Shown here piece after piece: positions 11,430 through 40,901 of a DNA stretch of 64,000 nt. Numbering within the stretch: position 1 is the stretch's first letter; every line of letters begins with the position of its first letter. The translations under genes and the position numbers were made by a program. The notes below the pieces were generated by a model that saw only the letters and a list, made by a program, of their open reading frames with translations, was not told the DNA's origin and did no database searches. This DNA comes from Escherichia coli (lineage in GTDB: Bacteria > Pseudomonadota > Gammaproteobacteria > Enterobacterales > Enterobacteriaceae), in NCBI RefSeq assembly GCF_003018255.1, contig NZ_CP027440.1. One strand, 5' to 3'.

Positions 11430-11500
11430 CGGATGCGATTTATATCGCATCTTTTTTTACCTGAATTGACTACAAAAAAAGCCACGGAATAAACCGTGGC
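11430..11500. terminator. Convergent intrinsic terminators between glxK and allE
   Basis: Hairpin gatgcgat-ttat-atcgcatc followed by T7 (plus strand); second hairpin gccacgg-aataaa-ccgtggc preceded by A7 (terminator for the minus strand). Confidence 0.6.
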
Positions 11501-11542
11501 AAAATCCAACATAGCTAAAAATAATCAGGCGAGTGGTATGAC

Positions 11543-12268
11543 TTAAATCTCTACGTCGCGGTTGCAATCTTTCGAGTAAATATAGCTGAACGCTTCACCA
11601 CGCCCTACGCCATAACCAGCCTGTAAAGAATAAGCGCCCATAAAGATGTAATCGCCTTTTTTCACCGGGATCCAGTTATTGTCGAGGTTATAAACCCCCT
11701 GACCGGAAAGAATATAGGCACCGTGTTCCTGAACGTGGGTTTCGATATAACCGTGGCTGGCACCTGGTGCAAAAGAGAGGATATGCATGTTCATATCAAA
11801 ACCTAACTCTTTGGGCAGAAAATCCAGCAGAATAACATCGTCCATGCCTTCATAATGAATGCGTTCCAGTTCGCTGGCATTGCCAGAAACCAGCCACGGC
11901 GCATGACCTTCTACCGGAATATAGCGACGCTTATATAAAAAGATTTGGCTGTCTTCGGCCTGGGCGTTAACAAACGTCATTAAGGAGCCTGGCGGGCAAT
12001 AAAGATAGCCACCTTCACTTAAGGTAAATGTTTTCCCTTCGGCTTTGGCAGTGATATTTCCAGAGATCACATACAGGAACGTTTCAATGCCTTCGCCACC
12101 GAAGCCCTGTTGGTTGCCGCCGTTTTGATGCAGTGTGACCAGATAATCAACAAAAGAGGCACCCAGCTTTGGCGTGGAGAGGATTGTCGCGTCACAATTT
12201 TCAAAGCCCGGAATAATATTTTTTACCAGACCGTCTGGTGTTAACAGTGCGAAATTACCGTGTTTCAC
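11543..12268 (-). CDS. allE: (S)-ureidoglycine aminohydrolase (cupin)
   Basis: 241-aa ORF from GTG at 12268; the in-frame upstream extension reads KGYLNNVTGYREDLLANRAI preceded by TAA, i.e. no ATG at the position of the longer annotated form I recall. Confidence 0.8.
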   Translation of the reverse strand: MKHGNFALLTPDGLVKNIIPGFENCDATILSTPKLGASFVDYLVTLHQNGGNQQGFGGEGIETFLYVISGNITAKAEGKTFTLSEGGYLYCPPGSLMTFVNAQAEDSQIFLYKRRYIPVEGHAPWLVSGNASELERIHYEGMDDVILLDFLPKELGFDMNMHILSFAPGASHGYIETHVQEHGAYILSGQGVYNLDNNWIPVKKGDYIFMGAYSLQAGYGVGRGEAFSYIYSKDCNRDVEI

Positions 12269-12453
12269 AATCGCACGGTTAGCCAGTAAATCTTCGCGGT
12301 AACCGGTGACGTTATTTAAATATCCCTTTTATCAAATAGTGTTTTTTGCTGTTTCATAATGTTTCAGGTCGTTCATTATGTTTTTGATTATCAACGGATT
12401 TGCCATTTTTCTTGTTTCAGCTTGTTTCACGTTGTAGCGCTTTGTGCAACGAT

Positions 12454-12479
12454 CGGTGTAGTTAATGGTGTAGTCAATT
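12454..12479. repeat. attL core of the satellite
   Basis: cggtgtagttaatggtgtagtcaatt identical to 26414-26439; imperfect similarity extends ~30 bp to the left on both copies. Confidence 0.8.
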
Positions 12480-13730
12480 GTGATGACCGGAATCAAAATT
12501 ATGAGCAGAGCACTTAACAAACTGAGTGACACACAGCTAAGGAAAATCAACGGCACACCCGCCCAAAAAACAGCCTTTCTTAATGACGGTGGAAACCTGA
12601 GCGTCAGGCATTCAACCAGCGGCCTTTTAACCTGGTATTTCACATACAGGGCCGGAACGGGAAGAGGGACACAACCTGAACGCGTTAAGCTGGGAAATTA
12701 TCCCGATCTGAGCCTGAAAGCAGCCAGGGAAAAAGCCGCACAGTGTCGCGCATGGCTGGCTGAGGGGAAAAATCCACGCTATGAACTGAATTACACCATG
12801 CAGGAAGCGTTAAAGCCTGCAACGGTTGGCGATGCGCTCACCTACTGGCTTGAGTCGTACGCAAAGGAAAAGCGCACAGATTACGAATCACTGAAAAGCC
12901 GGATCAATAAAAACATAATCATCAAAATTGGTGCTATGCCGCTGGATAAATGCGAGCTACGGCACTGGCTGGCCTGTTTTGATCAGGTGGCAAAGCGAAC
13001 ACCTGTTACTGCCGGATTCTTGCTACAGACATGCAAACAGGCGCTTAAATTCTGCCGTAGGCGGCGCTATGCAATCAGCAACGTTCTGGACGATCTGAAC
13101 GTGGCGGACGTTGGGAAAAAACCGGATATAAGCGAACGTGTCTTAAGCACCAAAGAACTGGGCGAGTTATTGCAGGCGCTGGATAAAAAAATATTTTCTC
13201 CTTACTACGTCGCGTTAATCCGCCTCCTGATTGTCTTCGGAGCCAGGACGGTAGAACTGAGGTTATCGGAGATCAGCGAGTGGGATTTTACCGAAATGCT
13301 ATGGACCGTTCCGAAGGAGCACAGCAAAACGAAGGTTGCAATATTCCGGCCCATACCGGAAGCGATCCTGCCGTTCGTCACGCGGCTGGTGGAGCAGAAC
13401 AGGCACACGGGCTTATTACTGGGGGAAGTGAAACAGGAGGCTAGCGTATCGCAGTACGGCAGATTAGCGCACAGGAGGCTAAAACACCTTCAATGGTCAT
13501 TGCATGACATCCGGCGCACCTTTACAACGATGCTGAATGATTTGGGCGTGGATCCTCACGTCGTGGAGCAGCTTACAGGTCATCAGATGCCAGGGATGCA
13601 ACGAGTCTATAACCACTCCCGTTATCTCGATGCGAAACGTGATGCGCTGGATATGTGGACGGAGCGGTTAGGGATACTGGCGGGAGCACATGAAAACGTA
13701 ACCACGCTACCAGTAACCAGAATAAAATAA
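12480..13730 (+). CDS. int: Tyrosine recombinase / integrase (P4-like)
   Basis: 416-aa ORF abutting attL; C-terminal catalytic region (HDIRRTF...RYLD) typical of phage integrases. Confidence 0.85.
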   Translation: MMTGIKIMSRALNKLSDTQLRKINGTPAQKTAFLNDGGNLSVRHSTSGLLTWYFTYRAGTGRGTQPERVKLGNYPDLSLKAAREKAAQCRAWLAEGKNPRYELNYTMQEALKPATVGDALTYWLESYAKEKRTDYESLKSRINKNIIIKIGAMPLDKCELRHWLACFDQVAKRTPVTAGFLLQTCKQALKFCRRRRYAISNVLDDLNVADVGKKPDISERVLSTKELGELLQALDKKIFSPYYVALIRLLIVFGARTVELRLSEISEWDFTEMLWTVPKEHSKTKVAIFRPIPEAILPFVTRLVEQNRHTGLLLGEVKQEASVSQYGRLAHRRLKHLQWSLHDIRRTFTTMLNDLGVDPHVVEQLTGHQMPGMQRVYNHSRYLDAKRDALDMWTERLGILAGAHENVTTLPVTRIK

Positions 13731-14094
13731 TTTTTTTCGTGTTTTTTCAGTATGCGCATACTGGATAAGTGCACAGATACAACGTGAAACAATGTGCAAC
13801 AACGTGACACAATCATGAACAAGAGGCCAAAAAGAATACAGATTTATAAGTTACTGATTTTTATTGCTCAACTGGTTTTTTATACATTAGCGAATTACGC
13901 GTTAAAGCGTGCGAAAAAAGGCATAAAACAAGATTTTATGCCTTTGTATTAACATGAATTTAAATGATTTTATCCTGATTATTCCTCTTTCTGTAAACCA
14001 TACGACATCAACATTTGCCATTCACCACACTAGCGGGAACAATACGACACAATAAGACACCTGATGACTCTTTAAGAAACGAAAGGGGGCAATA

Positions 14095-14283
14095 GTGTTA
14101 AGCACTGATCGGTTTATACGTGAAAAAGAATGCGAAAAGCTAACAGGCCTTAGCCGCTCATGCCGCTACCGCCTGGAAAAGGCCGGACAATTCCCATCAC
14201 GTCGTAAACTTGGCGGGCGTTCTGTTGGCTGGTCTTTATCTGAGGTTTTGGCCTGGAAGGATAGCTGCAAGGCAGTTCACTAA
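14095..14283 (+). CDS. alpA: AlpA-family transcriptional regulator / excisionase-like protein
   Basis: 62-aa ORF (GTG start) with AlpA-type HTH signature LTGLSRS..Y.L...G.FP...LG.RSVGW..SEV..W. Confidence 0.7.
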   Translation: MLSTDRFIREKECEKLTGLSRSCRYRLEKAGQFPSRRKLGGRSVGWSLSEVLAWKDSCKAVH

Positions 14284-14423
14284 AAAGACTGGCGGCACAC
14301 AGTCGCCACACATCCACTAATACAGAGATATAACTATGAAGATTGAATATGCGCCCGAACGTGGGCGGGGATTCGTTCGCCCTGGTGAAACTGAAAAACA
14401 ACAAAATTGGGGTTTTTCAGGCA

Positions 14424-14453
14424 TAAAAAAAGCGGCCCCGATATGGAGCCGCC
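14424..14453 (-). terminator. Putative intrinsic terminator for the leftward RHH transcript
   Basis: Minus-strand hairpin GCGGC-11 nt-GCCGC followed by U7. Confidence 0.4.
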
Positions 14454-14781
14454 TTTCTGAACAATTAACCTGCTGCGCCTTATGTGTATGTGATCCCAAA
14501 CATAAGCACGGGGATGATAGCCGCTATCAGGCTGGTGGGCAATTCCTGTTTTGTCCGTATTGCGCCGCCATTTTCGCTCGTTCAGAGCGCGAATATTTTT
14601 TTAGAAACTCATCAAGGACAAAAGCGCATGGTGCGAATCTTTCTGATTCATGCTCGAGCGCCATATTTTCGTGCTCTCTGTTCGTTTTTTGCGATGGTGT
14701 ATCGCTTGATTCTTTGTTGGTCATTGTGTGTACCTGTAAAGCAATGCGCCGTAGTACCTCACACCACGGCGCTGATAGTTT

Positions 14782-14913
14782 TTATCCTTTGGGGTCTATG
14801 CCGCGCCGCTTTAGTTCAGTGCGCCCCAACTCTTTAAGCCAGTTGGCTAGGCTTATGCCGTCGCTCTGTGCTTCTTTGTCGAATTGCTCTTTTAGCTCTG
14901 GAGAAATTCGCAT
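14782..14913 (-). CDS. Small ribbon-helix-helix (CopG/Arc-like) DNA-binding protein, candidate satellite repressor
   Basis: MRISPELKEQFDKEAQSDGISLANWLKELGRTEL... within ORF 14782-15054; transcribed divergently from the early operon; start codon uncertain, weak RBS. Confidence 0.4.
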   Translation of the reverse strand: MRISPELKEQFDKEAQSDGISLANWLKELGRTELKRRGIDPKG

Positions 14914-14966
14914 TCTGAATTGTGGGGATTGCCCGTCCCCTTTAGGGCTTTTATCGCGTTTGATTG

Positions 14967-15017
14967 TTGACAAGTGGCCACCTATTAAATTAGCCTTTCT
15001 ATTGTTAGGTGGCCACC
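14967..15017. promoter_or_regulatory. Candidate operator/promoter region: two GTGGCCAC palindromes flanking a TTGACA
   Basis: TTGACA at 14967-14972; palindromes GTGGCCAC (14974-14981) and GGTGGCCACC (15008-15017), 34 bp apart, between the divergent RHH gene and the rightward early genes. Confidence 0.45.
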
Positions 15018-15030
15018 TTAACACAAGAGC

Positions 15031-15077
15031 ACTTAAAAAAGCAAAGCCCCGCAAGTGCCATTACCACTCGCAGGGCT
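15031..15077 (-). terminator. Minus-strand intrinsic terminator; candidate 3' end of an antisense RNA
   Basis: On the minus-strand RNA a 13-bp stem (agcccugcgagug / cacuugcggggcu, two G-U pairs) with a 7-nt loop is followed by UUGCUUUUUU; on the plus strand the same stem has two C-A mismatches. Confidence 0.45.
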
Positions 15078-15106
15078 TCTAACCAACAACGTAAACGAGG
15101 AGCCGT

Positions 15107-15308
15107 TATGGTTGCCGTAAATCATATACCACACCTTGTACACACACAAACTGCCTTTGTGTGGCGTTTTCTGGCCCTGAGTGCCGGAGAATCTCAAATC
15201 ATCCACGTAACCGCCTGGACGGAACGCGAAGCGCGTAACCGTTGCCCGTCCGGTTGTGTTGCTGTATTTGCCGCCCGTATTCGTCAGGGGGAAACCTATG
15301 CACAATAA
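15107..15308 (+). CDS. Small hypothetical protein, possibly Icd-like
   Basis: MVAVNHIPHLVHTQTAFVWRFLALSAGESQIIHVTAWTEREARNRCPSGCVAVFAARIRQ; the Icd-like assignment is by recalled similarity only. Confidence 0.35.
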
Positions 15309-15528
15309 AACCACACCGGACGCAGCAGAAGAAGCAATGCAAATACTGATACGTGCGCTCGTTGATGTTACCCACATGGTGGAGATTATGGAGAGAAAAT
15401 CACAGTCGGAGCACGACAAAAGAAAACTTAAAACAATAAAAATAATTGCCAAAAACTCGCTGATAAAAGTTACAGACATCCTTAATGAGGACATTAAAAG
15501 AATAAGGGAGAAAATTTGTGATGCATAA
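15298..15528 (+). CDS. Hypothetical small protein (AT-rich cargo gene 1)
   Basis: 76 aa from ATG 15298 (MHNKTTPDAAEEAMQ...); overlaps the next gene by 11 bp; locally AT-rich. Confidence 0.35.
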   Translation: MHNKTTPDAAEEAMQILIRALVDVTHMVEIMERKSQSEHDKRKLKTIKIIAKNSLIKVTDILNEDIKRIREKICDA

Positions 15529-15748
15529 AATCCCTTTTGAAGTATTAATCCACTCTGAAAACGCATTAATTAAAGCACGCGAAATGAATGCGTTGTTAAT
15601 TAAATTAATTGAAGTGCCGGAAGGTGGTGAGGAATCAGGTGTATTAATGTTTGCAGCCATTCAGACATTACTATCGCCTGTTATTGATGAACTGGATAAG
15701 GCAATGGCAATTCACGAAAATAATAACGCGCCCCACACCGGAGAATAA
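15518..15748 (+). CDS. Hypothetical small protein (AT-rich cargo gene 2)
   Basis: 76 aa; start overlaps the previous ORF, suggesting translational coupling. Confidence 0.35.
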   Translation: MMHKIPFEVLIHSENALIKAREMNALLIKLIEVPEGGEESGVLMFAAIQTLLSPVIDELDKAMAIHENNNAPHTGE

Positions 15749-15753
15749 AAATA

Positions 15754-16053
15754 ATGAAACTTAAATATTCTGGCTTAACTGCCAGTGGCAAAACTCGCAC
15801 TAAATTCATGCGCGGTGATATTTACCGCGACCAGTACGGCGGCACGGTAATGATTAAGGGCGTGGAGGAACGGCGCGTAACTTACCGCCGTGAAGGTTAC
15901 GAATATGATTGCGTGATGCCCGTTTATCAGTTCGACCGTGATTTTTCTCTGGTGCAGGCAGCGCAACGCAGCAAGCCCACCAGCAGGGAGAAAGCACGCG
16001 CCAATATTCAGGAAATAAAAAAGATGCTTAACGTATTCAGGGGTAAAAAATGA
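15754..16053 (+). CDS. Hypothetical protein
   Basis: 99-aa ORF whose stop overlaps the primase start (ATGA). Confidence 0.4.
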   Translation: MKLKYSGLTASGKTRTKFMRGDIYRDQYGGTVMIKGVEERRVTYRREGYEYDCVMPVYQFDRDFSLVQAAQRSKPTSREKARANIQEIKKMLNVFRGKK

Positions 16054-17804
16054 AACTGGCACCGAACGTAAAACAGCAGTCACGCGGCATAAAACACAAA
16101 GAAACAGAAGTCATTATTTTTGCGGGTAGTGATGCCTGGTCACACGCAAAACAATGGCAGGAACATGACGCGCGTATGGCCGGAGATAATGAGCCTCCTG
16201 TGTGGCTTGGGGAGCAGCAGTTATCAGAACTGGATAAGCTGCAAATTGTGCCGGAAGGCAGAAAATCCGTGCGCATATTCAGGGCCGGATATCTTGCACC
16301 AGTAATGATAAAGGCGATTGGTCAAAAGCTGGCGGCGGCTGGTGTACAGGATGCAAATTTTTATCCTGAGGGTATGCACGGCAAGGAGGTGCAGAACTGG
16401 CGCGAATACCTGGCCCGTGAACGCCAGAATCTTTCTGATGGTCTGGTCATTGAGCTTCCGGTAAAGCAAAAGGCGCAACTTTCGCAGATGGCGGACAGTG
16501 AGCGCGCGCAGCTGCTTGCCGATCGCTTTGATGGCGTTTGCGTACATCCTGAAAGTGAAATTGTTCACGTATGGCGCGGCGGGGTATGGTGTCCGGTCAG
16601 CACAATGGAACTTAGCCGCGAAATGGTGGCGATCTATTCAGAGCACAGGGCCACTTTCAGCAAGCGCGTAATCAATAACGCCGTGGAAGCGTTAAAAGTT
16701 ATTGCCGAACCAATGGGCGAGCCGTCCGGCGATTTGCTGCCGTTCGCCAATGGTGCGCTTGACCTGAAAACGGGGGAATTTTCCCCGCACACGCCGGAGA
16801 ACTGGATCACCACGCACAACGGCATTGAGTACACGCCACCAGCACCAGGGGAGAATATCCGCGACAACGCGCCAAACTTTCATAAATGGCTTGAGCACGC
16901 AGCCGGAAAAGACCCGCGCAAGATGATGCGTATATGTGCCGCGCTGTACATGATTATGGCGAACCGGTACGACTGGCAGATGTTTATTGAGGCCACCGGA
17001 GACGGCGGGAGCGGTAAAAGTACATTCACACACATAGCCAGCCTTCTGGCAGGGAAACAGAACACGGTAAGCGCTGAAATGACATCGCTTGATGATGCTG
17101 GTGGACGTGCGCAGGTTGTCGGGAGTCGTCTTATCGTCCTGGCTGACCAGCCGAAATATACAGGCGAAGGAACGGGCATCAAGAAAATCACGGGCGGCGA
17201 CCCCGTGGAAATTAACCCGAAATATGAGAAGCGTTTTACGGCGGTAATCAGGGCGGTGGTGCTGGCTACCAACAATAACCCGATGATATTCACCGAACGG
17301 GCCGGAGGTGTGTCACGTCGTCGCGTAATTTTCCGTTTCGACAATATCGTCAGTGAGGCCGAAAAAGACAGGGAGCTACCGGAAAAGATTGCGGCTGAAA
17401 TCCCTGTCATTATCCGCCGATTGCTGGCGAACTTTACCGACCCTGAGAAGGCACGGGCTTTACTACTGGAACAGCGTGACGGTGATGAAGCTCTGGCAAT
17501 AAAGCAACAGACGGATCCGGTTATTGAGTTTTGCCAGTTCCTGAATTTTCTGGAGGAAGCACGCGGCCTGATGATGGGCGGCGGTGGCGATTCAGTGAAG
17601 TACACGACCAGGAACAGCCTTTACCGCGTCTATCTGGCGTTTATGGCATACGCAGGCAGGAGCAAACCGCTAAACGTGGCTGAGTTCAGCAAGGCCATGA
17701 AGCCAGCGGCGAAAGTTTACGGGCATGAATATATTACGCGAAAAGTTAAGGGAGTAACGCAGACCAACGCAATTACAACAGACGATTGCGACGCGTTTTT
17801 ATAA
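16050..17804 (+). CDS. Replication protein: P4-family primase / D5-like SF3 helicase
   Basis: 584 aa with Walker A GDGGSGKST; domain architecture of satellite pri-rep proteins; iterons immediately downstream. Confidence 0.8.
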   Translation: MKLAPNVKQQSRGIKHKETEVIIFAGSDAWSHAKQWQEHDARMAGDNEPPVWLGEQQLSELDKLQIVPEGRKSVRIFRAGYLAPVMIKAIGQKLAAAGVQDANFYPEGMHGKEVQNWREYLARERQNLSDGLVIELPVKQKAQLSQMADSERAQLLADRFDGVCVHPESEIVHVWRGGVWCPVSTMELSREMVAIYSEHRATFSKRVINNAVEALKVIAEPMGEPSGDLLPFANGALDLKTGEFSPHTPENWITTHNGIEYTPPAPGENIRDNAPNFHKWLEHAAGKDPRKMMRICAALYMIMANRYDWQMFIEATGDGGSGKSTFTHIASLLAGKQNTVSAEMTSLDDAGGRAQVVGSRLIVLADQPKYTGEGTGIKKITGGDPVEINPKYEKRFTAVIRAVVLATNNNPMIFTERAGGVSRRRVIFRFDNIVSEAEKDRELPEKIAAEIPVIIRRLLANFTDPEKARALLLEQRDGDEALAIKQQTDPVIEFCQFLNFLEEARGLMMGGGGDSVKYTTRNSLYRVYLAFMAYAGRSKPLNVAEFSKAMKPAAKVYGHEYITRKVKGVTQTNAITTDDCDAFL

Positions 17805-17817
17805 TTTTTTGTAAAAG

Positions 17818-18044
17818 CCCTCTACCCCATCTACCTGAATGAAGTAAACGCATATTATTCAACATGATAAGTGGGTAGAGGGCTAGGTAGAAGGCTAATA
17901 AAAGCTCTCTACCCCTTCTACCTGATTTTATCAGTTTCAGGTAGCAGGGTAGACGGCAGGTAGAGGAGCCCAAAAAGCTATCTACCCGCTGAAAGCCGCG
18001 CCATTACTGACATGATGAGCATTCGGGTAGATGGGTAGAGGGGG
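17818..18044. repeat. Iteron-type replication origin
   Basis: At least 8 copies in both orientations of GGTAGA(G/T)GG / CC(C/T)CTACC with AT-rich spacers, directly after the primase-helicase gene. Confidence 0.6.
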
Positions 18045-18089
18045 GGGAGGCACAACTAAAAACTTTTTAAACGAGGGGGGGGAAAATAA

Positions 18090-18404
18090 ATGCGCATACA
18101 TCAAAATCACTTAACAAATATGCCAGCCGAAAACATGAATCAGGGGCGACAAATGACCAAAATTCGCAGAGACAGAACACAGGCAAAATATAAAGCGTTA
18201 GACATGACAGAGCTTTCCTTAAAGGTGGCAATCAAAGCGATAGACCACCACACACGGGCAGGATACGCGAAGGAACATCCCGACCTGATAAGCGCATTCA
18301 TGACCACGGCGGCGGCAAACTTTGCCACGTTGACAGAACGTGAGATTGCCGAAGCGGAACAGGTAACAACCATCAACGTTAAAACCGGAGAGGTGGAATC
18401 ATGA
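18090..18404 (+). CDS. Hypothetical protein
   Basis: 104-aa ORF; stop overlaps the ssb start (ATGA). Confidence 0.35.
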   Translation: MRIHQNHLTNMPAENMNQGRQMTKIRRDRTQAKYKALDMTELSLKVAIKAIDHHTRAGYAKEHPDLISAFMTTAAANFATLTEREIAEAEQVTTINVKTGEVES

Positions 18405-18811
18405 CAGCACAGATAGCCGCTTACGGGCGGCTGGTGGACGACCCGCAGGTAAAACAGACCAGCAAGGGCACACCGATGACGCTGGTTCGTATGGCGGTAT
18501 CGCTGCCATGCAGCCAGGCACATGACGGACAGGCGACGTTATGGTTATCGGTTATCGCATTTGGCAAACAGGCCGATTTCCTGGCTAAACATCAAAAAGG
18601 CGATGTTGCCAGCGTATCCGGCACGATGCAGGTAAGCCAGTGGACCGGACAGAACGGGGAAACGCGGCGGGGGTATCAGGTTATTGCAGACAGCGTAATC
18701 AGTGCCCGCGCGGCACGTCCAGGCGGGAACAGACGCAAAACCACAGGCACACAGGGTAATCAGCCACCAGCGGGAGGCGATGACCCTTACGGTGACGGTA
18801 TTCCGTTCTGA
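18401..18811 (+). CDS. ssb: Single-stranded DNA-binding protein
   Basis: 136 aa; Gly/Pro-rich linker and acidic C-terminal tail DDPYGDGIPF resembling the SSB D-I-P-F tip. Confidence 0.6.
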   Translation: MTAQIAAYGRLVDDPQVKQTSKGTPMTLVRMAVSLPCSQAHDGQATLWLSVIAFGKQADFLAKHQKGDVASVSGTMQVSQWTGQNGETRRGYQVIADSVISARAARPGGNRRKTTGTQGNQPPAGGDDPYGDGIPF

Positions 18812-18821
18812 GGGGGTGACG

Positions 18822-19070
18822 ATGGTACATGACCGCATAGCGGAGGAACTCGAGGCAAAAGGCTTTTACCGGAGGGCGTCGGCGCGATGGGGTGAAGTCA
18901 TGCAACTGGTGGAGACAGACAAGGAACGGCATCAGGTTACGATGCGACGGCTGGAATGTTCCAGGAAGGCACAGAGGCCACCGGAGCCGCCAACGGAGAA
19001 CTACGCAGACCTGAGAAATGCAGTAAATCGCACTTACGCAGACATGGGGCTGAGCAAATTAGCAGAGTAG
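18822..19070 (+). CDS. PerC-family transcriptional regulator (putative)
   Basis: MVHDRIAEELEAKGFYRRASARWGEVM... matches the PerC-type AEELE.KG.WRRA..RW motif; start chosen at ATG 18822. Confidence 0.45.
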   Translation: MVHDRIAEELEAKGFYRRASARWGEVMQLVETDKERHQVTMRRLECSRKAQRPPEPPTENYADLRNAVNRTYADMGLSKLAE

Positions 19071-19092
19071 GAATATCAGAACCACACCACGC

Positions 19093-19125
19093 AGCCGGAG
19101 CAATCCGGCTTTTTGTTATTTTTTG
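19093..19125 (+). terminator. Intrinsic terminator after the PerC-like gene
   Basis: Hairpin agccgga-gcaa-tccggct followed by TTTTTGTTATTTTTT. Confidence 0.55.
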
Positions 19126-19336
19126 TAAATTATTTGTTCGTGGTTGTTCCACGTTGTTCACTGAGCGGATCGGCATATTTTACCCGAACTGAATCATGAT
19201 TATTCTCGCCCGTGGTGCCAGGACGCTGGGGCCACTTTCCCGCCTGTTAATGTGCTCGCCAATATTCATTACCAGGCGGGAAAACGATCGGTGCGATTGC
19301 TGATTTCCTTATGAAAAACGGTTGAGTGTTTGCCGC

Positions 19337-19374
19337 GTCCTGGAGTTCCTTACTTAACCCCAGGACTTTTTTTT
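19337..19374 (+). promoter_or_regulatory. Hairpin plus T8 tract abutting the capsid start codon
   Basis: 7-bp stem gtcctgg/ccaggac (16-nt loop) followed by eight T that run directly into ATG 19375; no SD sequence. Confidence 0.4.
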
Positions 19375-20532
19375 ATGCCGAGAATAATCGAATTACGCCA
19401 GCAGAAAACCGCCATTAAAAATCAGATGCGCGACATGCTGGAGAACGCTGAAAAAGAAAACCGCAGTCTTAACGATGCTGAGGGCGCAAAATTTGACGAA
19501 TTACGCGCTAAAGCTGAATCCCTCGATAAAGACATTTCCCGCCTTGAAGCCATTGCAGACGAAGAGCGCAGCAAGCCAGGTAAAAGCAGCCAGACCACTG
19601 ACCCCGCAGAACTACGCAGCTACATTCTGACAGGTGAAACCCGCGCATTAAGTACAGGCGTTCCCGCTGATGGTGGTTATACCGTTATCCCCGAACTGAA
19701 CACCGAAATCATGCGAATGCTGGCGGATGAATCCACCATGCGCCGCATCTGTACCGTGAAAAAAATCAGCAGCAACGAGTTTAAGCAGCTTGTTTCCGCT
19801 GGCGGTGCGACCGTTAACCACGGTGAAGAGGGTAAGGCACGCGAACAGACCAGCACCCCGCAGATTAACGAGGTGAGCATTAAGCTGTATCCGGTCTATG
19901 CGTACCCGCGCACCACACAGGAAATCGTGGATTTTTCCGATGTGGACATCCTTTCATGGCTGACGGGTGAGATTGGCGACACCTTCACGGAAACCGAAGA
20001 AAGCGATCTGGTTGTGGGCGACGGTGACAAAAAAGCAAAAGGTTTTTTATCCGTACCCCGTGCAGAGAAGAACGACAAAGAGCGTGATTTTGGTACGTTG
20101 CAGGTAATTAAACCTTCCGAATCTCTGGCGTGGACATCTGCGGACCCGCTGATCGACCTGAAATTTGCATTACGTAAAAAATACCGCAAAAACGCGGTCT
20201 GGGTGGTTAACTCCACGACGGCGGCAAAACTCCAGAAGGTGAAGAACGCGAACGGTGATTACATCTGGCGTGACCGTTTACAGGCGGGTGATCCTGATAC
20301 GTTGCTGGGCCTTCCGGTCGAATATCTGGAGTTTATGCCTGATAACGTTATTGCCCTGGGTGACTTCAAACGCGGTTACTACATTGTTGATCACGAAACA
20401 GGTGTTCGCACCAGACCGGACAACCTCACAGAGCCGGGCTTCATCAAAATTTTCACGCAGAAATATTTAGGCGGTGGCGTGGTGGATTCGAACGCGATCA
20501 AGATTCTGGAACTGCCACAGGACGACGATTAA
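19375..20532 (+). CDS. Major capsid protein (HK97 fold) with N-terminal coiled-coil scaffold-like region
   Basis: ORF 19330-20532 (TTG) trimmed to ATG 19375 (MPRIIELRQQKTAIKNQ...). Confidence 0.8.
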   Translation: MPRIIELRQQKTAIKNQMRDMLENAEKENRSLNDAEGAKFDELRAKAESLDKDISRLEAIADEERSKPGKSSQTTDPAELRSYILTGETRALSTGVPADGGYTVIPELNTEIMRMLADESTMRRICTVKKISSNEFKQLVSAGGATVNHGEEGKAREQTSTPQINEVSIKLYPVYAYPRTTQEIVDFSDVDILSWLTGEIGDTFTETEESDLVVGDGDKKAKGFLSVPRAEKNDKERDFGTLQVIKPSESLAWTSADPLIDLKFALRKKYRKNAVWVVNSTTAAKLQKVKNANGDYIWRDRLQAGDPDTLLGLPVEYLEFMPDNVIALGDFKRGYYIVDHETGVRTRPDNLTEPGFIKIFTQKYLGGGVVDSNAIKILELPQDDD

Positions 20533-20543
20533 CAGCATACAGA

Positions 20544-20571
20544 AGGGGCTTAAAAGCCCCTTTAGTGTTTT
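20544..20571 (+). terminator. Putative terminator between capsid and protease genes
   Basis: Hairpin aggggctt-aa-aagcccct followed by TTAGTGTTTT. Confidence 0.45.
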
Positions 20572-21144
20572 ATGGGTGAAAAAATTATGAAGAGTATGGA
20601 AATCCGGTCATCGGAAATCACCACCAGCGGAGCCGGTACGCTGACGGGCTACGTTGTTCGCTGGGATAAGCTTTCAGAACTGTTATGGGGTGAGTTTTAC
20701 GAAAAATTCCAGCGGGGGGCGTTTACTGAATGGCTTGCGGCGGGTAATGACGTTCGCGGCCTGTATGAGCATGACCACAGCATGTTACTGGGGCGCACCC
20801 GTTCCGGCACGCTGAAACTGGAAGAGGACGAAACAGGGTTACGCTTTGAACTGACCCCACCGGATACCAGTACAGGGCGCGACGTTATCGAACTGGTTAA
20901 GCGTGGGGACATCTCGGGGATGAGCTTTGGCTTTCGCTCCCGTAAGGATGTATGGGATACCACAACAGATCCATGCGTGCGCACCGTGCTGGTGGCGGAA
21001 CTGTACGAAATTACCGTTACATCGGTACCGGCTTACCCCGATTCCGGCGTGGAGCTGGCCCGCCGTTCCCTGTATGAGCAGCACCCCGAAAAAATGCCGC
21101 GTGCGGATAATCGCCGCTGGTGGGTGGATTTAGCGGGGGTGTGA
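20572..21144 (+). CDS. Prohead maturation protease (HK97 family)
   Basis: 190-aa ORF following the capsid gene; length and position fit a prohead protease. Confidence 0.75.
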   Translation: MGEKIMKSMEIRSSEITTSGAGTLTGYVVRWDKLSELLWGEFYEKFQRGAFTEWLAAGNDVRGLYEHDHSMLLGRTRSGTLKLEEDETGLRFELTPPDTSTGRDVIELVKRGDISGMSFGFRSRKDVWDTTTDPCVRTVLVAELYEITVTSVPAYPDSGVELARRSLYEQHPEKMPRADNRRWWVDLAGV

Positions 21145-21145
21145 T

Positions 21146-22357
21146 ATGTGGCCTTTCAGAAGAAAAAAAGAGCAGCGCAGCATGACGCTTGATAAGTTTA
21201 TGGCGCTGGCTGGCACATCGAACACGGGGGCGGGTGAGTACGTATCATCGGGGACAGCGGAATCACTGCCCGCCGTCATGAACGCCGTGACGGTCATCTC
21301 TGAGGCGGTGGCTACCATGCCGTGTTACCTGTACCTGGTACGCAATGAGAAGGGGAAGGAGGCCCGCGAGTGGCTTGATTCTCATCCGGTCGATCACATC
21401 CTCAACGAGCGCCCGAACGCGTGGCAGACTCCCTACCAGTTTAAGCGAATGATGATCCGCCACTGCCTGTTAAACGGTAATGCTTATGCGGTGATTCAGT
21501 GGGGGCGTGATGGTTTTCCGGTGGCTTTACATCCTTACCCGCCGCAGTCGGTGAACGTGGAGCAGACAGGTGATCATAACTGGCGCTACTGCATCACTGA
21601 CGCCTACACCGGAAACACCCGCAACTATTTACCGTGGGAGGTTCTCCACCTTCGTTACTCCACGGATGACGGTTTTATGGGGCGCTCACCTGTAACCATC
21701 TGCCGCGAATCGCTGGGGCTTGGGCTGGCCCAACAACGCCACGGCGCGAGCGTGATGCGTGATGGCATGATGGCGGCAGGGGTTATCACGTCAGGCGAAT
21801 GGCTGGACGGCGTGAAGGGCAAACAGGCATTAGCCGCACTGGAACGCTACAAAGGGGCCAGAAACGCCGGAAAAACGCCCATCCTTGAAGGGGGGATGAG
21901 CTATCAGCAGCTGGGCATGAGTAATCAGGATGCCGAATGGCTGGCCTCCCGTCGCTTCACCATTGAAGACATCGCCCGAATGTTCAACGTCTCGCCGATT
22001 TTTTTGCAGGAATACAGCAACAGCACCTACAGCAACTTCAGCGAGGCAAGCCGCGCATTTCTCACCATGACGATGCGCCCGTGGCTGGCGAACTTTGAGC
22101 AGCAGATAAAAAACGCCCTGCTGGTGGCCTCGCCTGTACCTGGTATCCGGTATCAGGTGGAGTTTGACAGCGCGGACCTGTTACGGGCCACACCTGGCGA
22201 ACGCTTTGCCACCTATGAACGCGGCATCAAATCCGGCGTTATGTGCCCGAACGAAGCCCGCGAACGTGAAGGGCTGTCCCCGCGTGATGGTGGTGATGAG
22301 TTCAGCCAGGCATGGAAACAGGAAGTAAAAATCAGCGAGGGAGAAAAACCGGAATGA
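21146..22357 (+). CDS. Portal protein
   Basis: 403-aa ORF in the head module; portal-like by length and position. Confidence 0.8.
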   Translation: MWPFRRKKEQRSMTLDKFMALAGTSNTGAGEYVSSGTAESLPAVMNAVTVISEAVATMPCYLYLVRNEKGKEAREWLDSHPVDHILNERPNAWQTPYQFKRMMIRHCLLNGNAYAVIQWGRDGFPVALHPYPPQSVNVEQTGDHNWRYCITDAYTGNTRNYLPWEVLHLRYSTDDGFMGRSPVTICRESLGLGLAQQRHGASVMRDGMMAAGVITSGEWLDGVKGKQALAALERYKGARNAGKTPILEGGMSYQQLGMSNQDAEWLASRRFTIEDIARMFNVSPIFLQEYSNSTYSNFSEASRAFLTMTMRPWLANFEQQIKNALLVASPVPGIRYQVEFDSADLLRATPGERFATYERGIKSGVMCPNEAREREGLSPRDGGDEFSQAWKQEVKISEGEKPE

Positions 22358-22692
22358 ACATAGGGCGACTGCGTGACAGGATAACGATTCAGACCCTGAA
22401 ACAGACCAGGGATATAACCGGCGAAATACTCGAAACGTGGGAGGACGGTCACACACTCTGGGCAAGCGTGAACATGGTCAGCAGCAAGGAGGCCATTTCA
22501 TCGGGCGCAGAGCTGGCGATTGGTACCGTAAGGATCTGGATACGGTACCGGAAGGACATCAACGCCACCTGCCGGATAAAGGTCAGTACGGGGCCGCTGG
22601 CGGGGCGTGTACTGAATATCATCGGGCAGCCGCTGCCGGATGCCGCCAGGACACGCCTTGAAATTCTTTGTCGTGAGGGCGCGGAAAAATGA
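22354..22692 (+). CDS. Head-tail adaptor / head closure protein
   Basis: ATG 22354 overlaps the portal stop (ATGA); MNIGRLRDRITIQ... Confidence 0.55.
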   Translation: MNIGRLRDRITIQTLKQTRDITGEILETWEDGHTLWASVNMVSSKEAISSGAELAIGTVRIWIRYRKDINATCRIKVSTGPLAGRVLNIIGQPLPDAARTRLEILCREGAEK

Positions 22693-22985
22693 CAGAAGAA
22701 CTTATCACCCTGGAAGAAGTGAAACTCCATTGCCGCATCGATGGCGACGATGAAGACCAGTTAATCAGCGGATACATTGCCGCATCGCTTGAGGCGTGCC
22801 AGATACACATAGGCAGGCGCTTTGATGACGGGCTGGAGTTCACGCCAGCCATAAAGATTGGCTGCATGATGTTTATCGCTCACCTGTATGAAAATCGCCA
22901 GATTGTCGCGGATAACGCAAAAACACGCGTACCCATGACGATAGGCGCACTCTGGACGGCTTACCGTGATGTGGGGGTGTACTGA
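22689..22985 (+). CDS. Head-tail connector (gp6-like)
   Basis: 98 aa; overlapping stop/start with neighbours on both sides. Confidence 0.55.
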   Translation: MTEELITLEEVKLHCRIDGDDEDQLISGYIAASLEACQIHIGRRFDDGLEFTPAIKIGCMMFIAHLYENRQIVADNAKTRVPMTIGALWTAYRDVGVY

Positions 22986-23425
22986 TGCCGTGGCAACCAT
23001 TAAGACGATGCACAGAACCAGGCTGTAACAGGCGCGTTAAATCCGGCAAGTGTGAGGAGCACAGGCGGGCGGCATGGCGTGCAGAGGATGCCAGACGAGG
23101 ACACCGCCGCGCGCGTGGATATTCCAGACAGTGGGACAAATACCGCGCCATGTATCTGAGTAAAAACCCGTTATGCGTGCGATGCCTTGAGAAGGGGATA
23201 TATACGCCCGCCGTGGTGGTGGATCACATTATCCCGATTAATGGCGGTGATGATGTTCTCTTCTGGCCCGAATGGAACCATCAACCATTGTGCCAGGCGT
23301 GTCATAACCAGAAAACGAAATGGCTTGATCCGGCAACAAAAAGCAAGCGTGCCGCAGGTGGATTTCGTGAAGAGGAAGAACGGGCTGCTAACCGCAATAA
23401 CTGGATGTATGACGCTGATGAATGA
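22985..23425 (+). CDS. HNH endonuclease (packaging-associated)
   Basis: Cys-rich zinc-finger and HNH motifs (CVRCLEKG...VDHIIPINGG...CQACHNQKT); sits upstream of terS/terL as in cos-packaging HK97-like systems. Confidence 0.8.
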   Translation: MPWQPLRRCTEPGCNRRVKSGKCEEHRRAAWRAEDARRGHRRARGYSRQWDKYRAMYLSKNPLCVRCLEKGIYTPAVVVDHIIPINGGDDVLFWPEWNHQPLCQACHNQKTKWLDPATKSKRAAGGFREEEERAANRNNWMYDADE

Positions 23426-23591
23426 GCGGGAACAAAACCGCCTTATCCGTGGACTTATAAGGCAGCGTGACGCATGGAAGACACAGGAAACAGGGCATAA
23501 AGATAAAGCGTCAGGACGCGCAGAACGCATCACAGCGAAGCGATTAACCGACCGTGACCGCGAGGTTATGGAATGTTTCCGCAATCGCTGA
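23420..23591 (+). CDS. Hypothetical small protein
   Basis: 57-aa reading frame MNEREQNRLIRGLIRQRDAWK... between HNH and terS; may not be expressed. Confidence 0.25.
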
Positions 23592-23713
23592 TGAGGCTGT
23601 ATGACGGGGTGGGGGGCGTTTTCAGGACAAACCCGACCCCGCCGGGCACCGAACGCCTCCTCAAATTTTTATGCACGGGAATTTTTTGAAAAATAATCTG
23701 GCGAAAAATAAGC

Positions 23714-24070
23714 ATGGCAAGACCACCGAAAGCCCCCGCCTACCTGGATGATATCGCCGTGAAGCAGTGGCGGGAAAAATCTAGGCAGCTTGCGGAACGG
23801 GGAGACCTGACCCCCGCCGACTGGAGCAATCTGGAACTGTATTGTGTCAACTACTCCATTTACCGGAAAGCCGTTGCAGACCTTGCGGCGCGCGGGTTCA
23901 GCATTGTTAACAGTCAGGGCGGCGAGAGCAGAAACCCCGCATTAAGCGCAAAATCCGACGCTGAAAGAGTGATGATAAAAATGGCCTCTTTGCTCGGTTT
24001 TGACCCGATAAGCCGCCGTAAAAATCCACCGGAAACAGAAGAAGAGGACGAGCTTGACCGCCTGGAATAA
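23714..24070 (+). CDS. terS: Terminase small subunit (P27 family)
   Basis: 118 aa, MARPPKAPAYLDDIAVKQWRE...; overlaps the terL start. Confidence 0.75.
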   Translation: MARPPKAPAYLDDIAVKQWREKSRQLAERGDLTPADWSNLELYCVNYSIYRKAVADLAARGFSIVNSQGGESRNPALSAKSDAERVMIKMASLLGFDPISRRKNPPETEEEDELDRLE

Positions 24071-25715
24071 GTACGCAGAAGACGTAAAAACGGGCAAAAT
24101 TCCGGCCTGTAAACGGCTGAAACAGGCCGTTAAACGGTACTTTTCGGACCTTGAAAGCCCCCTTTACACGTTCGATCGTGAGGTTGTGGAGCGGTTTATT
24201 GCCTTTTCCAGGGTGTGCCCGCACGTAAAAGGGCCGATGCGTGGCAGACCCATTGAGCTGGAGCCGTGGCAGCAGTTCGCCTTTGCGTGCATCCTCGGCT
24301 TTAAGGTTAAGGCCACCGGACGGCGCAAATACACGAGCGCCTTTATCGAAGTGCCGCGCAAAAATGCGAAATCCACGACCGCCGCGATTCTGGCTAACTG
24401 GTTTCTGATTATGGAGAACGGGCAGCAGGATATTTACACCGCAGCGGTGAGCCGTGACCAGGCGCGGATCGTTTTTGATGATGCGCGTCAGATGTGCCTT
24501 TTATCCCGACCGTTACGCAGGCGGGTGAATATTCAGGCCCACAAGGTGATGCACCCGAAAAGCAACAGCCTGTTAAAGCCGCTGGCAGCAAAAGCGGCAA
24601 CCATCGAGGGAACAAACCCCAGCCTTTCCATCGTGGACGAATACCACCTACACCCCGATAACGGCGTTTATTCCGCGCTTGAGCTGGGGATGGGCGCACG
24701 TCCCGAAGGGCTGTTATTTGCCATTACCACATCGGGCAGTAACGTCGTTTCAACCTGTAAACAGCACTATGATTATTGCTGCCAGATCCTGGACGGCGAA
24801 GAGGTCAACGATTCAATTTTTGTGCTGATTTACGAGCTGGACGACGAAAACGAGGTTGATGATCCGGCGATGTGGATAAAGGCTAACCCTAACATCGATG
24901 TTTCCGTGGATCGTGAAAAACTGGCCTCAACCATCCAGAAAGCGCGGGGTATTCCGTCGCAATGGGTGGAGATGATGACAAAGCGATTTAATATCTGGTG
25001 CCAGGGGGCTACCCCGTGGATGGGTAACGGCGCATGGGCTGAGTGTGCCGGAACGTTCACGGAGGAAGATTTACACGGGCAGGAGTGTTACGCGGGGCTG
25101 GACTTATCATCAACCAGCGATATTTCCAGCGTGTGCTATGCCTTTCCGGTCGGTAAAAATATCATGCTGGTTTCCCGTCATTATCTGCCGGAGTTCCAGC
25201 TACAGAACCCCGCCAATAAAAACCGCGCTGTCTATCGCCAGTGGGCTAAAGCGGGCTGGATACGCACAACGCCAGGTGACTGCATTGATTACGACCGGAT
25301 CAGAGATGACATCATGCAGGATGCGGAGAAATTTAATATCAGGCTGGTGGGCTTTGATACGTGGAACGCCACGCATCTCAGGACGCAATTACAGGGGGCT
25401 GGTTTTGAGGTGGAGCCGTTCCCGCAAACCTACCTCAGATTCAGTCCGGCGGCGAAATCGTTCGAAGTTTTTGTTAACCGCAGGGTGATTGTGCATCGTG
25501 GCGATCCGGTGTTGTCCTGGTCGATGAGTAACGTCGTGATGCAGAGTGACGCGAACGCCAATATCAAGCCGAACAAGAAAAAATCACCGAACAAGATAGA
25601 CCCGAGCGTAGCGGCGCTGATGGCGTTTGGTACATTCCAGGCAGAGCATGAGGATTTTGCTTTTGATATAAGCGACAGCCACCGCCAGAAACTGGAAGAA
25701 TTTAGCGGGGTGTAA
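24054..25715 (+). CDS. terL: Terminase large subunit
   Basis: 553 aa with ATPase and nuclease regions; final large gene before attR. Confidence 0.85.
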   Translation: MTAWNKYAEDVKTGKIPACKRLKQAVKRYFSDLESPLYTFDREVVERFIAFSRVCPHVKGPMRGRPIELEPWQQFAFACILGFKVKATGRRKYTSAFIEVPRKNAKSTTAAILANWFLIMENGQQDIYTAAVSRDQARIVFDDARQMCLLSRPLRRRVNIQAHKVMHPKSNSLLKPLAAKAATIEGTNPSLSIVDEYHLHPDNGVYSALELGMGARPEGLLFAITTSGSNVVSTCKQHYDYCCQILDGEEVNDSIFVLIYELDDENEVDDPAMWIKANPNIDVSVDREKLASTIQKARGIPSQWVEMMTKRFNIWCQGATPWMGNGAWAECAGTFTEEDLHGQECYAGLDLSSTSDISSVCYAFPVGKNIMLVSRHYLPEFQLQNPANKNRAVYRQWAKAGWIRTTPGDCIDYDRIRDDIMQDAEKFNIRLVGFDTWNATHLRTQLQGAGFEVEPFPQTYLRFSPAAKSFEVFVNRRVIVHRGDPVLSWSMSNVVMQSDANANIKPNKKKSPNKIDPSVAALMAFGTFQAEHEDFAFDISDSHRQKLEEFSGV

Positions 25716-25728
25716 TGAGGTCAGCAGC

Positions 25729-26010
25729 ATGACAGAAGCCGAAATACTGCGATTAATCCGCCGCGTCTCTGGAATCAGCCAGCAGGCTGACGAACAGACC
25801 ACGCAGCCGGACAGCGTGACAGCCGAAAATTATGCGCGTGTTGTTGCTGAGGTGATGCGCCGTGATGGTATCCAGCTTAATGATGCGGATATGCGCGACA
25901 TACGGATCCGCGTTCTTGAAATGCTGGCCTACAATCGCCGTGTAGAGATGTACAGGGAGAAAGAGAAAATTACGTACAACTGGAAGAAGCCGGAGCGGTT
26001 ACGGCGGTAA
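25729..26010 (+). CDS. Hypothetical protein
   Basis: 93-aa ORF after terL. Confidence 0.4.
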   Translation: MTEAEILRLIRRVSGISQQADEQTTQPDSVTAENYARVVAEVMRRDGIQLNDADMRDIRIRVLEMLAYNRRVEMYREKEKITYNWKKPERLRR

Positions 26011-26012
26011 CG

Positions 26013-26082
26013 TGTTGATTTAAAGGCGGCTCAATTTTGAGCCTCGTAACTGGTTGATATTTCCGGCAACCTCAATTTGAGG
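26013..26082. repeat. Two tandem GTTGAT...CTCAATTTGAG palindrome units; candidate cos/packaging or operator site
   Basis: Unit 1 gtgttgatttaaaggcggctcaattttgagcc and unit 2 ggttgatatttccggcaacctcaatttgagg, ~40-bp period, in the 400-bp non-coding right end of the satellite. Confidence 0.4.
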
Positions 26083-26413
26083 AGAGCGGAAACATCATCC
26101 CTCACATTCTGAATGGTCATAATGACCACGCAGGCCATCGAGGCAACCATAGCGATCATCGTTACGGTTGGAGCTTTCCGCCATTGGTGGAAAAGGTGCA
26201 CATCTGGATCATCATTACGGTGATCAAGGGTATGTAAAACCCACCAGCCTGATTAAAGGTTAACCGGAAAAAAAATCCGGTAGCCCCGTTATGGGGATCC
26301 CCATATCGACATTAACGCCCCTCATGAATTGGTGCGCTTCCCCCTGGAAAGATTACCCGCCTGTATATTTCTTGTGTCTATTTGTTCCACGTTGTTTCAT
26401 ACAGTGCACCGAA

Positions 26414-26439
26414 CGGTGTAGTTAATGGTGTAGTCAATT
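26414..26439. repeat. attR core of the satellite
   Basis: Identical 26-mer to 12454-12479. Confidence 0.8.
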
Positions 26440-26531
26440 TGCGATTTTTGGCACTTTTTGTAGTGCGGGTTATTTAATTAAATCAATGTGTTATTGAAAA
26501 TAAGTTATAGATATATCCCATTTATAACTCC

Positions 26532-40824: not shown

Positions 40825-40901
40825 GCGCCCTTAGCTCAGTTGGATAGAGCAACGACCTTCTAAGTCGTGGGCCGCAGGTTCGAATCCTGCAGGGCGCGCC
40901 A
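40825..40901 (+). tRNA. argU: tRNA-Arg (anticodon UCU)
   Basis: GCGCCCTTAGCTCAGTTGGATAGAGCAACGACCTTCTAAGTCGTGGGCCGCAGGTTCGAATCCTGCAGGGCGCGCCA; cloverleaf, UCU anticodon, encoded CCA. Confidence 0.9.

Follow-up and report, generated by a model that had tools for sequence, protein, structure and literature searches.

An element with the gene set of an intact capsid-forming phage satellite of the EcCIEDL933 lineage is located between allC and allE in Escherichia coli

Introduction

Phage-inducible chromosomal islands of the capsid-forming kind (cf-PICIs) are phage satellites that make small heads of their own and take their tails from different phages, a combination that lets identical islands cross species boundaries. 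The family-defining member is EcCIEDL933 of E. coli O157:H7 EDL933 (10.1101/2022.09.08.507074; 10.1101/2025.02.11.637232). It has int, alpA and rep genes like those of the classical phage-inducible chromosomal islands (PICIs), together with genes for a capsid protein, a protease, a portal, connectors, an HNH endonuclease, TerS and TerL. It has no tail genes, and its transfer requires only the tails of a helper phage (10.1101/2022.09.08.507074). Helper-dependent induction, the formation of its own small capsids and transfer with helper tails have been shown for this island (10.1101/2022.09.08.507074; 10.1101/2025.02.11.637232). The family is described by the SatelliteFinder cfPICI model, with a median of 14 kb and 19 proteins (PMC10085698). 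A comparison is made here with an element in a 64,000-nucleotide stretch of E. coli DNA (contig NZ_CP027440.1 of assembly GCF_003018255.1; the whole stretch is referred to as the window). An earlier note, written from the sequence of the window, had described this element as a cf-PICI-like satellite of 13,986 bp bounded by perfect 26-bp direct repeats.

Results and Discussion

Gene content and assignment of the element

The element is assigned, with an estimated probability of about 0.9, as an intact cf-PICI of the EcCIEDL933 lineage, 14,192 bp in length and integrated in the chromosome between allC and allE (Table 1). The genes listed in the earlier note are all recovered at full length in PHROG searches, both the early genes (int, the AlpA-type regulator, the primase, the single-stranded DNA-binding protein (SSB) and the PerC-like activator) and the head genes (the major capsid protein (MCP), protease, portal, head closure, adaptor, HNH, TerS and TerL). 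Every open reading frame (ORF) of the element is equal in length to its annotated homologue in the relatives. As the note had also stated, tail and lysis genes are missing, with no tail, baseplate, holin or endolysin family matched by any ORF of at least 60 amino acids (aa) in the element, and cI/Cro-type control genes are found neither within the att junctions nor in the flanks. Tail and lysis genes were also sought outside the 26-bp repeats, where the neighbors are allE and glxK on one side and allC and allD on the other; none was found.

Comparison with the prototype supports the cf-PICI interpretation. The gene set is complete, and for each of the nine head and packaging proteins the identity to the counterpart in EcCIEDL933, the island used in the experiments, is 96-100%. 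The 11 core components that the SatelliteFinder cfPICI model asks for are all present, including the integrase, AlpA next to int, the primase with its own origin, the MCP, protease and portal, the head-tail connector and adaptor (phrog_40 and phrog_25), and HNH, TerS and TerL, and the forbidden tail and holin components are absent. The size of the element and its ~20 genes fit the ~14-15 kb and ~19 proteins of cf-PICIs, about one third of a helper genome.

The gene repertoire is distinct from that of true phages, as judged by megablast and tblastn rather than by weighted gene repertoire relatedness (wGRR). A megablast search against 50,697 phage records finds only four partial matches, with 75-79% identity. 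A larger prophage as the origin of the element, a reading against which the note had set its own, was examined with the same records, and no full-size phage among them shares the head module. With tblastn, the capsid protein has at most 40% identity to phages of ~40 kb, and matches of 58-65% are found only in records of 3.8-16.5 kb, plus one uninspected Klebsiella record of 106.5 kb. Two complete small records have a capsid match, vB_KppS-Ant and Pasteurella Pmp8. The former (LR881103.1, 1-16548) shows the cf-PICI organization, with terS, terL, int, primase, capsid, portal and connector genes. It was deposited as an induced Escherichia prophage, and a 2.3-kb gene after terL is named there as a tail length tape measure protein. 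A satellite would not be expected to have such a gene, and it may be cargo under a wrong name.

Table 1. Features of the element, with their positions in the window and the identity of the encoded proteins to those of EcCIEDL933.
Feature	Position	Strand	Evidence and remarks	Identity to EcCIEDL933
attL core	12321-12333		ATATCCCTTTTAT; overlaps allE start codon; empty-site alignments with K-12 and JNE23-011
P' arm of att	12334-12500	+	two overlapping copies of the 14-nt motif, and left 12-mer pair GGTGTAGTTAAT GGTGTAGTCAAT (12455-12478)
14-nt motif TTGTTYCACGTTGT, two overlapping copies	12412-12435		in P' arm
Tyrosine integrase (Int), 409 aa	12501-13730	+	phrog_1, E 5e-76	92%
14-nt motif TTGTTYCACGTTGT, three copies	13779-13812	-	10-bp spacing, in int-alpA spacer; candidate AlpA binding sites
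alpA, excisionase/transcriptional regulator, 62 aa	14095-14283	+	GTG start; phrog_2790, E 2e-17	98%
Variable region after alpA	14284-15107		candidates: plus-strand ORF 14336-15082 (248 aa); minus-strand ORFs 14527-14724 (65 aa) and 14782-14913/15054 (RHH/Arc-like)
Icd-like small protein, 66 aa	15108-15308	+	first gene of rightward early operon; phrog_29966, E 3e-32; phrog_1743
Small early gene	15298-15528	+	phrog_5146
Small early gene	15518-15748	+	phrog_2196
DUF4222 gene (small early gene)	15754-16053	+	phrog_285	95%
Primase/SF3-helicase-type replication protein, P4 family, 584 aa	16050-17804	+	phrog_864, E 7e-175
Putative replication origin	17821-18039		11 RGGTAGA copies, both orientations, directly after primase stop codon
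orf83	18153-18404	+	phrog_1231
ssb	18401-18811	+	phrog_44	98%
PerC-family activator	18822-19070	+	phrog_994/10396	80%
Capsid-operon leader	19093-19157	+	terminator-like hairpin after perC (19093-19110), then 14-nt motif (19134-19157): one copy and a degenerate neighbor with 3 mismatches
HK97-fold MCP, 385 aa	19375-20532	+	phrog_10, E 1e-88; SxGxxAD maturation motif from S93	99%
HK97-type prohead protease	20572-21144	+	phrog_80	97%
Portal	21146-22357	+	phrog_12	99%
Head closure	22354-22692	+	phrog_25 (Hc1)	96%
Head-tail adaptor/connector	22689-22985	+	phrog_40 (Ad1)	99%
HNH endonuclease	22985-23425	+	phrog_144	99%
60-aa ORF, EcCIEDL933 gene 1792 homologue	23409-23591	+	phrog_3173	100%
Probable cos region	23592-23713		inferred; G+C-rich spacer upstream of terS
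TerS	23714-24070	+	P27 family; phrog_83	100%
TerL	24054-25715	+	phrog_9	98%
Conserved 93-aa ORF	25729-26010	+	last gene of the element; phrog_1561, E 1e-54
Right non-coding end and P arm of att	26011-26512	+	one copy of the 14-nt motif, and right 12-mer pair (26415-26438)
14-nt motif TTGTTYCACGTTGT, one copy	26382-26395		in P arm
attR core	26513-26525		ATATCCCATTTAT; allC-side chromosomal homology restarts; empty-site alignments

Head and packaging module

The MCP of the element is identical at 382 of its 385 residues to PDB entry 9GYI, which its authors describe as the EcCIEDL933 capsid model and which forms a T=4 shell 47.5 nm across (10.1101/2025.02.11.637232). The maturation motif starts at the same serine, S93, as in the prototype. 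The portal is followed by the head closure and adaptor proteins, which set the tail compatibility of cf-PICIs (10.1101/2025.02.11.637232). The 60-aa ORF before the cos region is equally well kept, and a mutant in its counterpart, gene 1792 of EcCIEDL933, shows very poor transfer (10.1101/2022.09.08.507074). The 93-aa ORF that ends the gene string has counterparts of 87-100% identity both in cf-PICIs and in the classical PICI.

The probable cos region is placed in the spacer upstream of terS because the ends of a related record fall there. In the linear 16.5-kb vB_KppS-Ant record, the first position lies 22 nt before terS, and the last one corresponds to position 23628 of the window.

Junctions of the element and the insertion site

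The perfect 26-bp direct repeats of the earlier note are real (12454-12479 and 26414-26439) and grow to 75 nt at 80% identity. However, they are not the ends of the element. Comparisons with empty sites rule them out as att cores and place the junctions instead at a 13-bp core on either side. The references for the empty site are K-12 and strain JNE23-011; the latter has the site unoccupied and matches the right flank at 99.8% identity. Only 10 bp separate the allC stop codon from the allE start codon in both, and therefore the insertion exceeds the span between the 26-bp repeats. Chromosomal homology to these empty sites stops at ~12327-12333 on the left and restarts at 26513 on the right, and an unoccupied site with the extra 217 bp was found in no complete E. 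coli genome. The length of the element is corrected accordingly from 13,986 to 14,192 bp.

The core shared by both junctions is ATATCCC[T/A]TTTAT, and the attL and attR cores differ by one base. This single mismatch is exactly what a crossover within ATATCCC would yield, with attP carrying the T and attB carrying the A. From the empty-site comparison, attB reads ...TTTAAATATCCCATTTATAACTCC..., while attL reads ...TTTAAATATCCC-TTTTATCAAATAG... and attR reads ...TAGATATATCCC-ATTTATAACTCC... in the occupied site. The attP junction that is expected from the cores is ...AAGTTATAGATATATCCCTTTTATCAAATAGTG....

The structure of the att sites was resolved with the two empty sites and three other attB sites. 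The relatives at other attB sites, the tqsA cf-PICI of strain OkiPb01677 and the classical PICI that strain CU568-3 has between roxA and phoQ, show homology to the element from 12328 rightwards only. On the right side their homology reaches ~26496 and is followed by their own short core. The true ends came only from the empty-site comparison, and perfect direct repeats near an integrase, even the longest ones, are not always the att cores.

The insertion splits the allD-allC-allE gene string. The left flank has allE followed by glxK and ybbY, and the right flank has allC, allD and fdrA. The allE gene (11543-12328, on the minus strand) is pushed 14.2 kb away from allD-allC, and its start codon is changed from ATG to AAG through the integration. 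The same change is also seen in E. coli TUM1886, where RefSeq annotates a shorter allE protein (247 aa) from a downstream start. A 5'-truncated match to the enterobacterial small RNA STnc480 lies between glxK and allE (11500-11536), at the margin of the sequence searched; it is sub-threshold, with 42 bits against a gathering score of 72. A literature search found no paper that names allC or ylbA together with PICI; supplementary attB tables lay outside this search, and six cf-PICI attB sites have been published.

Attachment-site arms and integrase

Each 26-bp repeat is a tandem pair of 12-mers of the type GGTGTAGTYAAT, namely GGTGTAGTTAAT and GGTGTAGTCAAT. This 12-mer has four copies in the window, with 0.27 expected by chance. 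The tandem 12-mers, which lie in the P and P' arms, are likely to be integrase sites of the arm type, in view of their position and of their co-variation with the N-terminus of Int. In relatives at other attB sites, they are located at the same distances from the core, and the layout of the P' arm recurs in the elements at tqsA and roxA/phoQ.

The co-variation is seen in the comparison of two further elements. In the tqsA element of OkiPb01677, the arm 12-mers are GGTGTAGTCACT instead of ending in TYAAT, and the att core is ATAACAGCA. The integrase of the tqsA site is 89% identical to that of the element, and its differences concentrate in residues 1-60 and 121-145. In comparison, the TUM1886 element, located at the same allE site, retains the 12-mer sequence and the Int segments 1-60 and 121-145, and its integrase is 94% identical.

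Replication module and early region

The P4-type primase-helicase and the adjacent iteron origin that the earlier note had proposed are both recovered. The primase passes the model TIGR01613 (phage/plasmid primase, P4 family) with 109.1 bits against a cutoff of 108.7, and it has the Pfam domains D5_N, DUF5906 and Pox_D5. It is 98% identical to the primases of the O55:H7 cf-PICI and of the classical PICI. Of the 14 copies of RGGTAGA in the window, 11 lie in the putative origin directly downstream, with 6.3 copies expected for the whole 64 kb.

The rightward operon that leads to the primase starts with the Icd-like ORF, followed by two small ORFs and the DUF4222 gene. The positional counterpart of the first ORF is annotated in the relatives as a host cell division inhibitor Icd-like protein. 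Behind the origin, the ssb product passes the cutoff of TIGR00621, and the OkiPb01677 homologue of the PerC protein, with 100% identity, is annotated as a PerC family transcriptional regulator. Defense cargo was also considered for the ten small ORFs. None has a credible PADLOC match, the sole match being a chance-level one to Cas8g (E 0.003).

The region between alpA and the Icd-like ORF is variable and can be read on either strand. The 248-aa plus-strand ORF has 6.4% Cys and no PHROG or Pfam match, and RefSeq annotates its EDL933 counterpart as a plus-strand protein of 247 aa. On the minus strand, the 65-aa ORF matches phrog_21027 (E 2e-12). The second one, a ribbon-helix-helix (RHH)/Arc-like ORF ending at 14782, matches the Arc-like family phrog_228 (E 2e-6) and HicB weakly, and a terminator-like hairpin (14772-14746) is located downstream of its stop codon. 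In the OkiPb01677 relative, RefSeq annotates minus-strand small genes in the alpA-icd region. Neither codon-position substitutions nor codon-usage log-odds favored one strand for 14336-15082; the third positions of the overlapping frames coincide, and short AT-rich genes, alpA among them, score no higher than non-coding frames. The plus-strand ORF may be a shadow ORF, with the two leftward small ORFs as the genes and the RHH/Arc-like one as a possible island repressor.

Two other kinds of control element were considered. Palindromes of the type GGTGGCCAC (14974-15017) were rejected as operators, as they are not kept in EcCIEDL933 and are barely above chance. No Rfam family, C4/CI-type RNA or other known RNA is found within the element, the alpA-icd region included, at E<=0.01, and only sub-threshold noise at E<=10.

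A conserved 14-nt box

The 14-nt motif TTGTTYCACGTTGT is confined to the element in the 64-kb window, with up to two mismatches allowed. Its copies are located in both att arms, in the spacer between int and alpA, and in the leader of the capsid operon. In EcCIEDL933 (L010), the motif is found at the same four positions (11241-11264, 12608-12641, 18894-18907 and 26479-26492).

A single island regulator probably binds the box and would thereby couple excision with the expression of late genes. The foremost candidate is AlpA, as the placement of the motif fits an excision cofactor and a transcription factor in one protein. The box is a concrete candidate, open to experiment, for the way in which induction is linked both with excision and with the capsid operon.

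Three small, unreported points could be new if they hold, namely that one island regulator, most likely AlpA, binds TTGTTYCACGTTGT, that the plus-strand ORF after alpA is a shadow ORF in a region with an RHH/Arc-like protein as a possible repressor, and that integration at allC-allE reversibly disables the allE start. Together they are considered less likely than not. Under the last of them, with the allE start removed and allE uncoupled from allD-allC, the anaerobic use of allantoin would be altered in carriers for as long as the island stays integrated.

Proposed mechanism

The steps proposed here are modeled on the experiments with the near-identical prototype. A helper siphophage would switch on alpA, a gene that is required for the induction of EcCIEDL933 (10.1101/2022.09.08.507074). 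AlpA would then drive excision, carried out by Int with a directionality factor, and would turn on the genes for replication and packaging. The island would replicate from its own iteron origin with its own primase/helicase and SSB. With the capsid operon expressed, small T=4 heads would be built from the MCP, protease and portal of the element, and HNH, TerS and TerL would cut at the cos site upstream of terS and package island DNA only.

The head closure and adaptor proteins would finally dock helper tails to give infectious particles, and filled capsids without tails may also be released. EcCIEDL933 accepts the tails of HK106 and not those of HK022 (10.1101/2025.02.11.637232). HK106/HK97-like tails are the likeliest partners for this element, because its head closure protein shares 96% identity, and its connector 99%, with the EcCIEDL933 counterparts. 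By the same near-identity, helper-dependent induction, self-made small capsids and a need for helper tails only would be expected of this island.

Alternative explanations

Several observations weigh against an intact and mobile cf-PICI. No helper prophage is located within the 64-kb window, the replication gene is unlike that of the prototype, and none of 5,426 complete E. coli genomes has exactly this mosaic (the closest one reaches 96.3% identity over 98% of the length). The mobility and function of this copy are argued by analogy with the near-identical prototype. The cos position depends on the ends of a database record, which may have been set arbitrarily, the 14-nt motif is linked to AlpA by its position, and the 12-mers are linked to the arm-binding domain of Int by their position and by the co-variation with the Int N-terminus. 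The first of these points would be expected of a cf-PICI-derived fossil, with its sequence intact and its mobility lost for want of a compatible helper or through a mutated regulatory site. The one-base difference between the att cores and the small number of genomes that have the element at allC-allE (12 of the 5,426) could be read in the same way. However, the ~20 ORFs are all of full length and near-identical to those of a mobile prototype, the core mismatch is the expected outcome of the crossover described above, and the arm sites and the 14-nt motif are perfectly conserved. A fossil is therefore considered improbable.

The other two explanations concern the class of the element, and both are given only a very slight chance. 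The head and packaging genes are of a phage (HK97-like) type, as they would be if the element were no satellite but part of a larger prophage, namely its head region after partial deletion. Against such an origin, the att junctions are precise and lie in a housekeeping gene string with nothing phage-like beyond them, homologous units of 14-15.5 kb with the same ends are present at four different attB sites, and the int-alpA-primase-ori genes are of the satellite type and shared with classical PICIs. Among the phage records searched, moreover, no full-size phage has close DNA identity or a capsid protein above 40%. These shared early genes in turn raise the question of a classical PICI without capsid formation, or of a P4-like satellite that remodels the capsids of its helper: for Int, AlpA, primase and SSB, the identity to the proteins of the classical PICI at roxA-phoQ in strain CU568-3 is 71-98%, and the primase belongs to the P4 family. 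But the element encodes a portal, protease, head closure, adaptor, HNH and TerL, all lacking in the classical PICI, and portal, connector and adaptor are forbidden components of the SatelliteFinder PICI model (PMC10085698). An intact cf-PICI is the preferred assignment.

Other features of the window

The tRNA-Arg(TCT) gene argU is located at 40825-40901, with no DLP12-type prophage after it. Downstream of argU (41900-64000) are an omptin gene, ybcH, nfrA, nfrB, a transposase of the ISAs1 family (50746-51882) and cusS. The same stretch also contains a PAAR/YD-repeat Rhs protein (55589-59728) and VgrG (60237-62138).

Comparison with known systems

Of the 5,426 complete E. coli genomes, 233 have at least 80% of the element and 1,713 have parts of it. 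The same allE-int junction is limited to the 12 genomes mentioned above. The closest overall DNA is that of the cf-PICIs in tqsA, with 96.3% identity over 98% for OkiPb01677 and 94.4% over 94% for O55:H7 USDA5905. The AlpA, SSB, PerC, MCP, HNH, TerS and TerL proteins of the OkiPb01677 element are identical to those described here. The differences of the tqsA elements are in the att core (ATAACAGCA), the arm 12-mers (GGTGTAGTCACT) and Int residues 1-60 and 121-145. In EDL933, the strain of the prototype, tqsA is intact (NZ_CP008957.1, 2368175-2369209), and the site of these closest relatives is thus empty there.

The element shares its left half with the classical PICIs of the EcCICFT073 type. 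For the one in strain CU568-3, at roxA-phoQ, the identities are 93% for Int, 95% for AlpA, 82% for DUF4222, 98% for the primase and 89% for the last ORF, and the att arms are the same. In contrast, this classical PICI is without portal, protease, head closure, adaptor, HNH, TerS and TerL, and has capsid-like and decoration genes in their place. With HK97 and its relatives, the element has in common the types of head and packaging proteins (HNH-dependent cos packaging and an HK97-fold capsid) and the SxGxxAD motif. Unlike these phages, it has no tail, lysis or lysogeny-switch genes, and its capsid protein is at most 40% identical to those of full-size phages. The head also differs in the prototype, being T=4 in EcCIEDL933 and T=7 in HK97 and its relatives.

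The prototype EcCIEDL933 is located at ~1,680,081-1,695,616 of NZ_CP008957.1, between roxA and phoQ rather than between allC and allE. Its genes follow each other as in the element, from int through to the final 93-aa ORF, and the architecture of the att arms is the same. It is larger, at ~15.4-15.5 kb compared to 14.2 kb, and its perC and capsid genes are separated by additional small genes that the element lacks. Its Rep is a 710-aa DUF927 protein, in place of which the element has the 584-aa D5_N/DUF5906 primase (63% identity over 40% of the length).

The element is a further cf-PICI of the family described in 2022-2025, near-identical to the type element in its head and packaging genes, and it represents no new kind. 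What it contributes to the family is modest: the architecture of the att arms, a new attB inside the allantoin cluster, the exchange of a replication module, and the conserved 14-nt box. Relative to the known systems, this copy adds one more attachment site, with a replication gene swapped with classical PICIs and a head module that is almost unchanged from that of EcCIEDL933.

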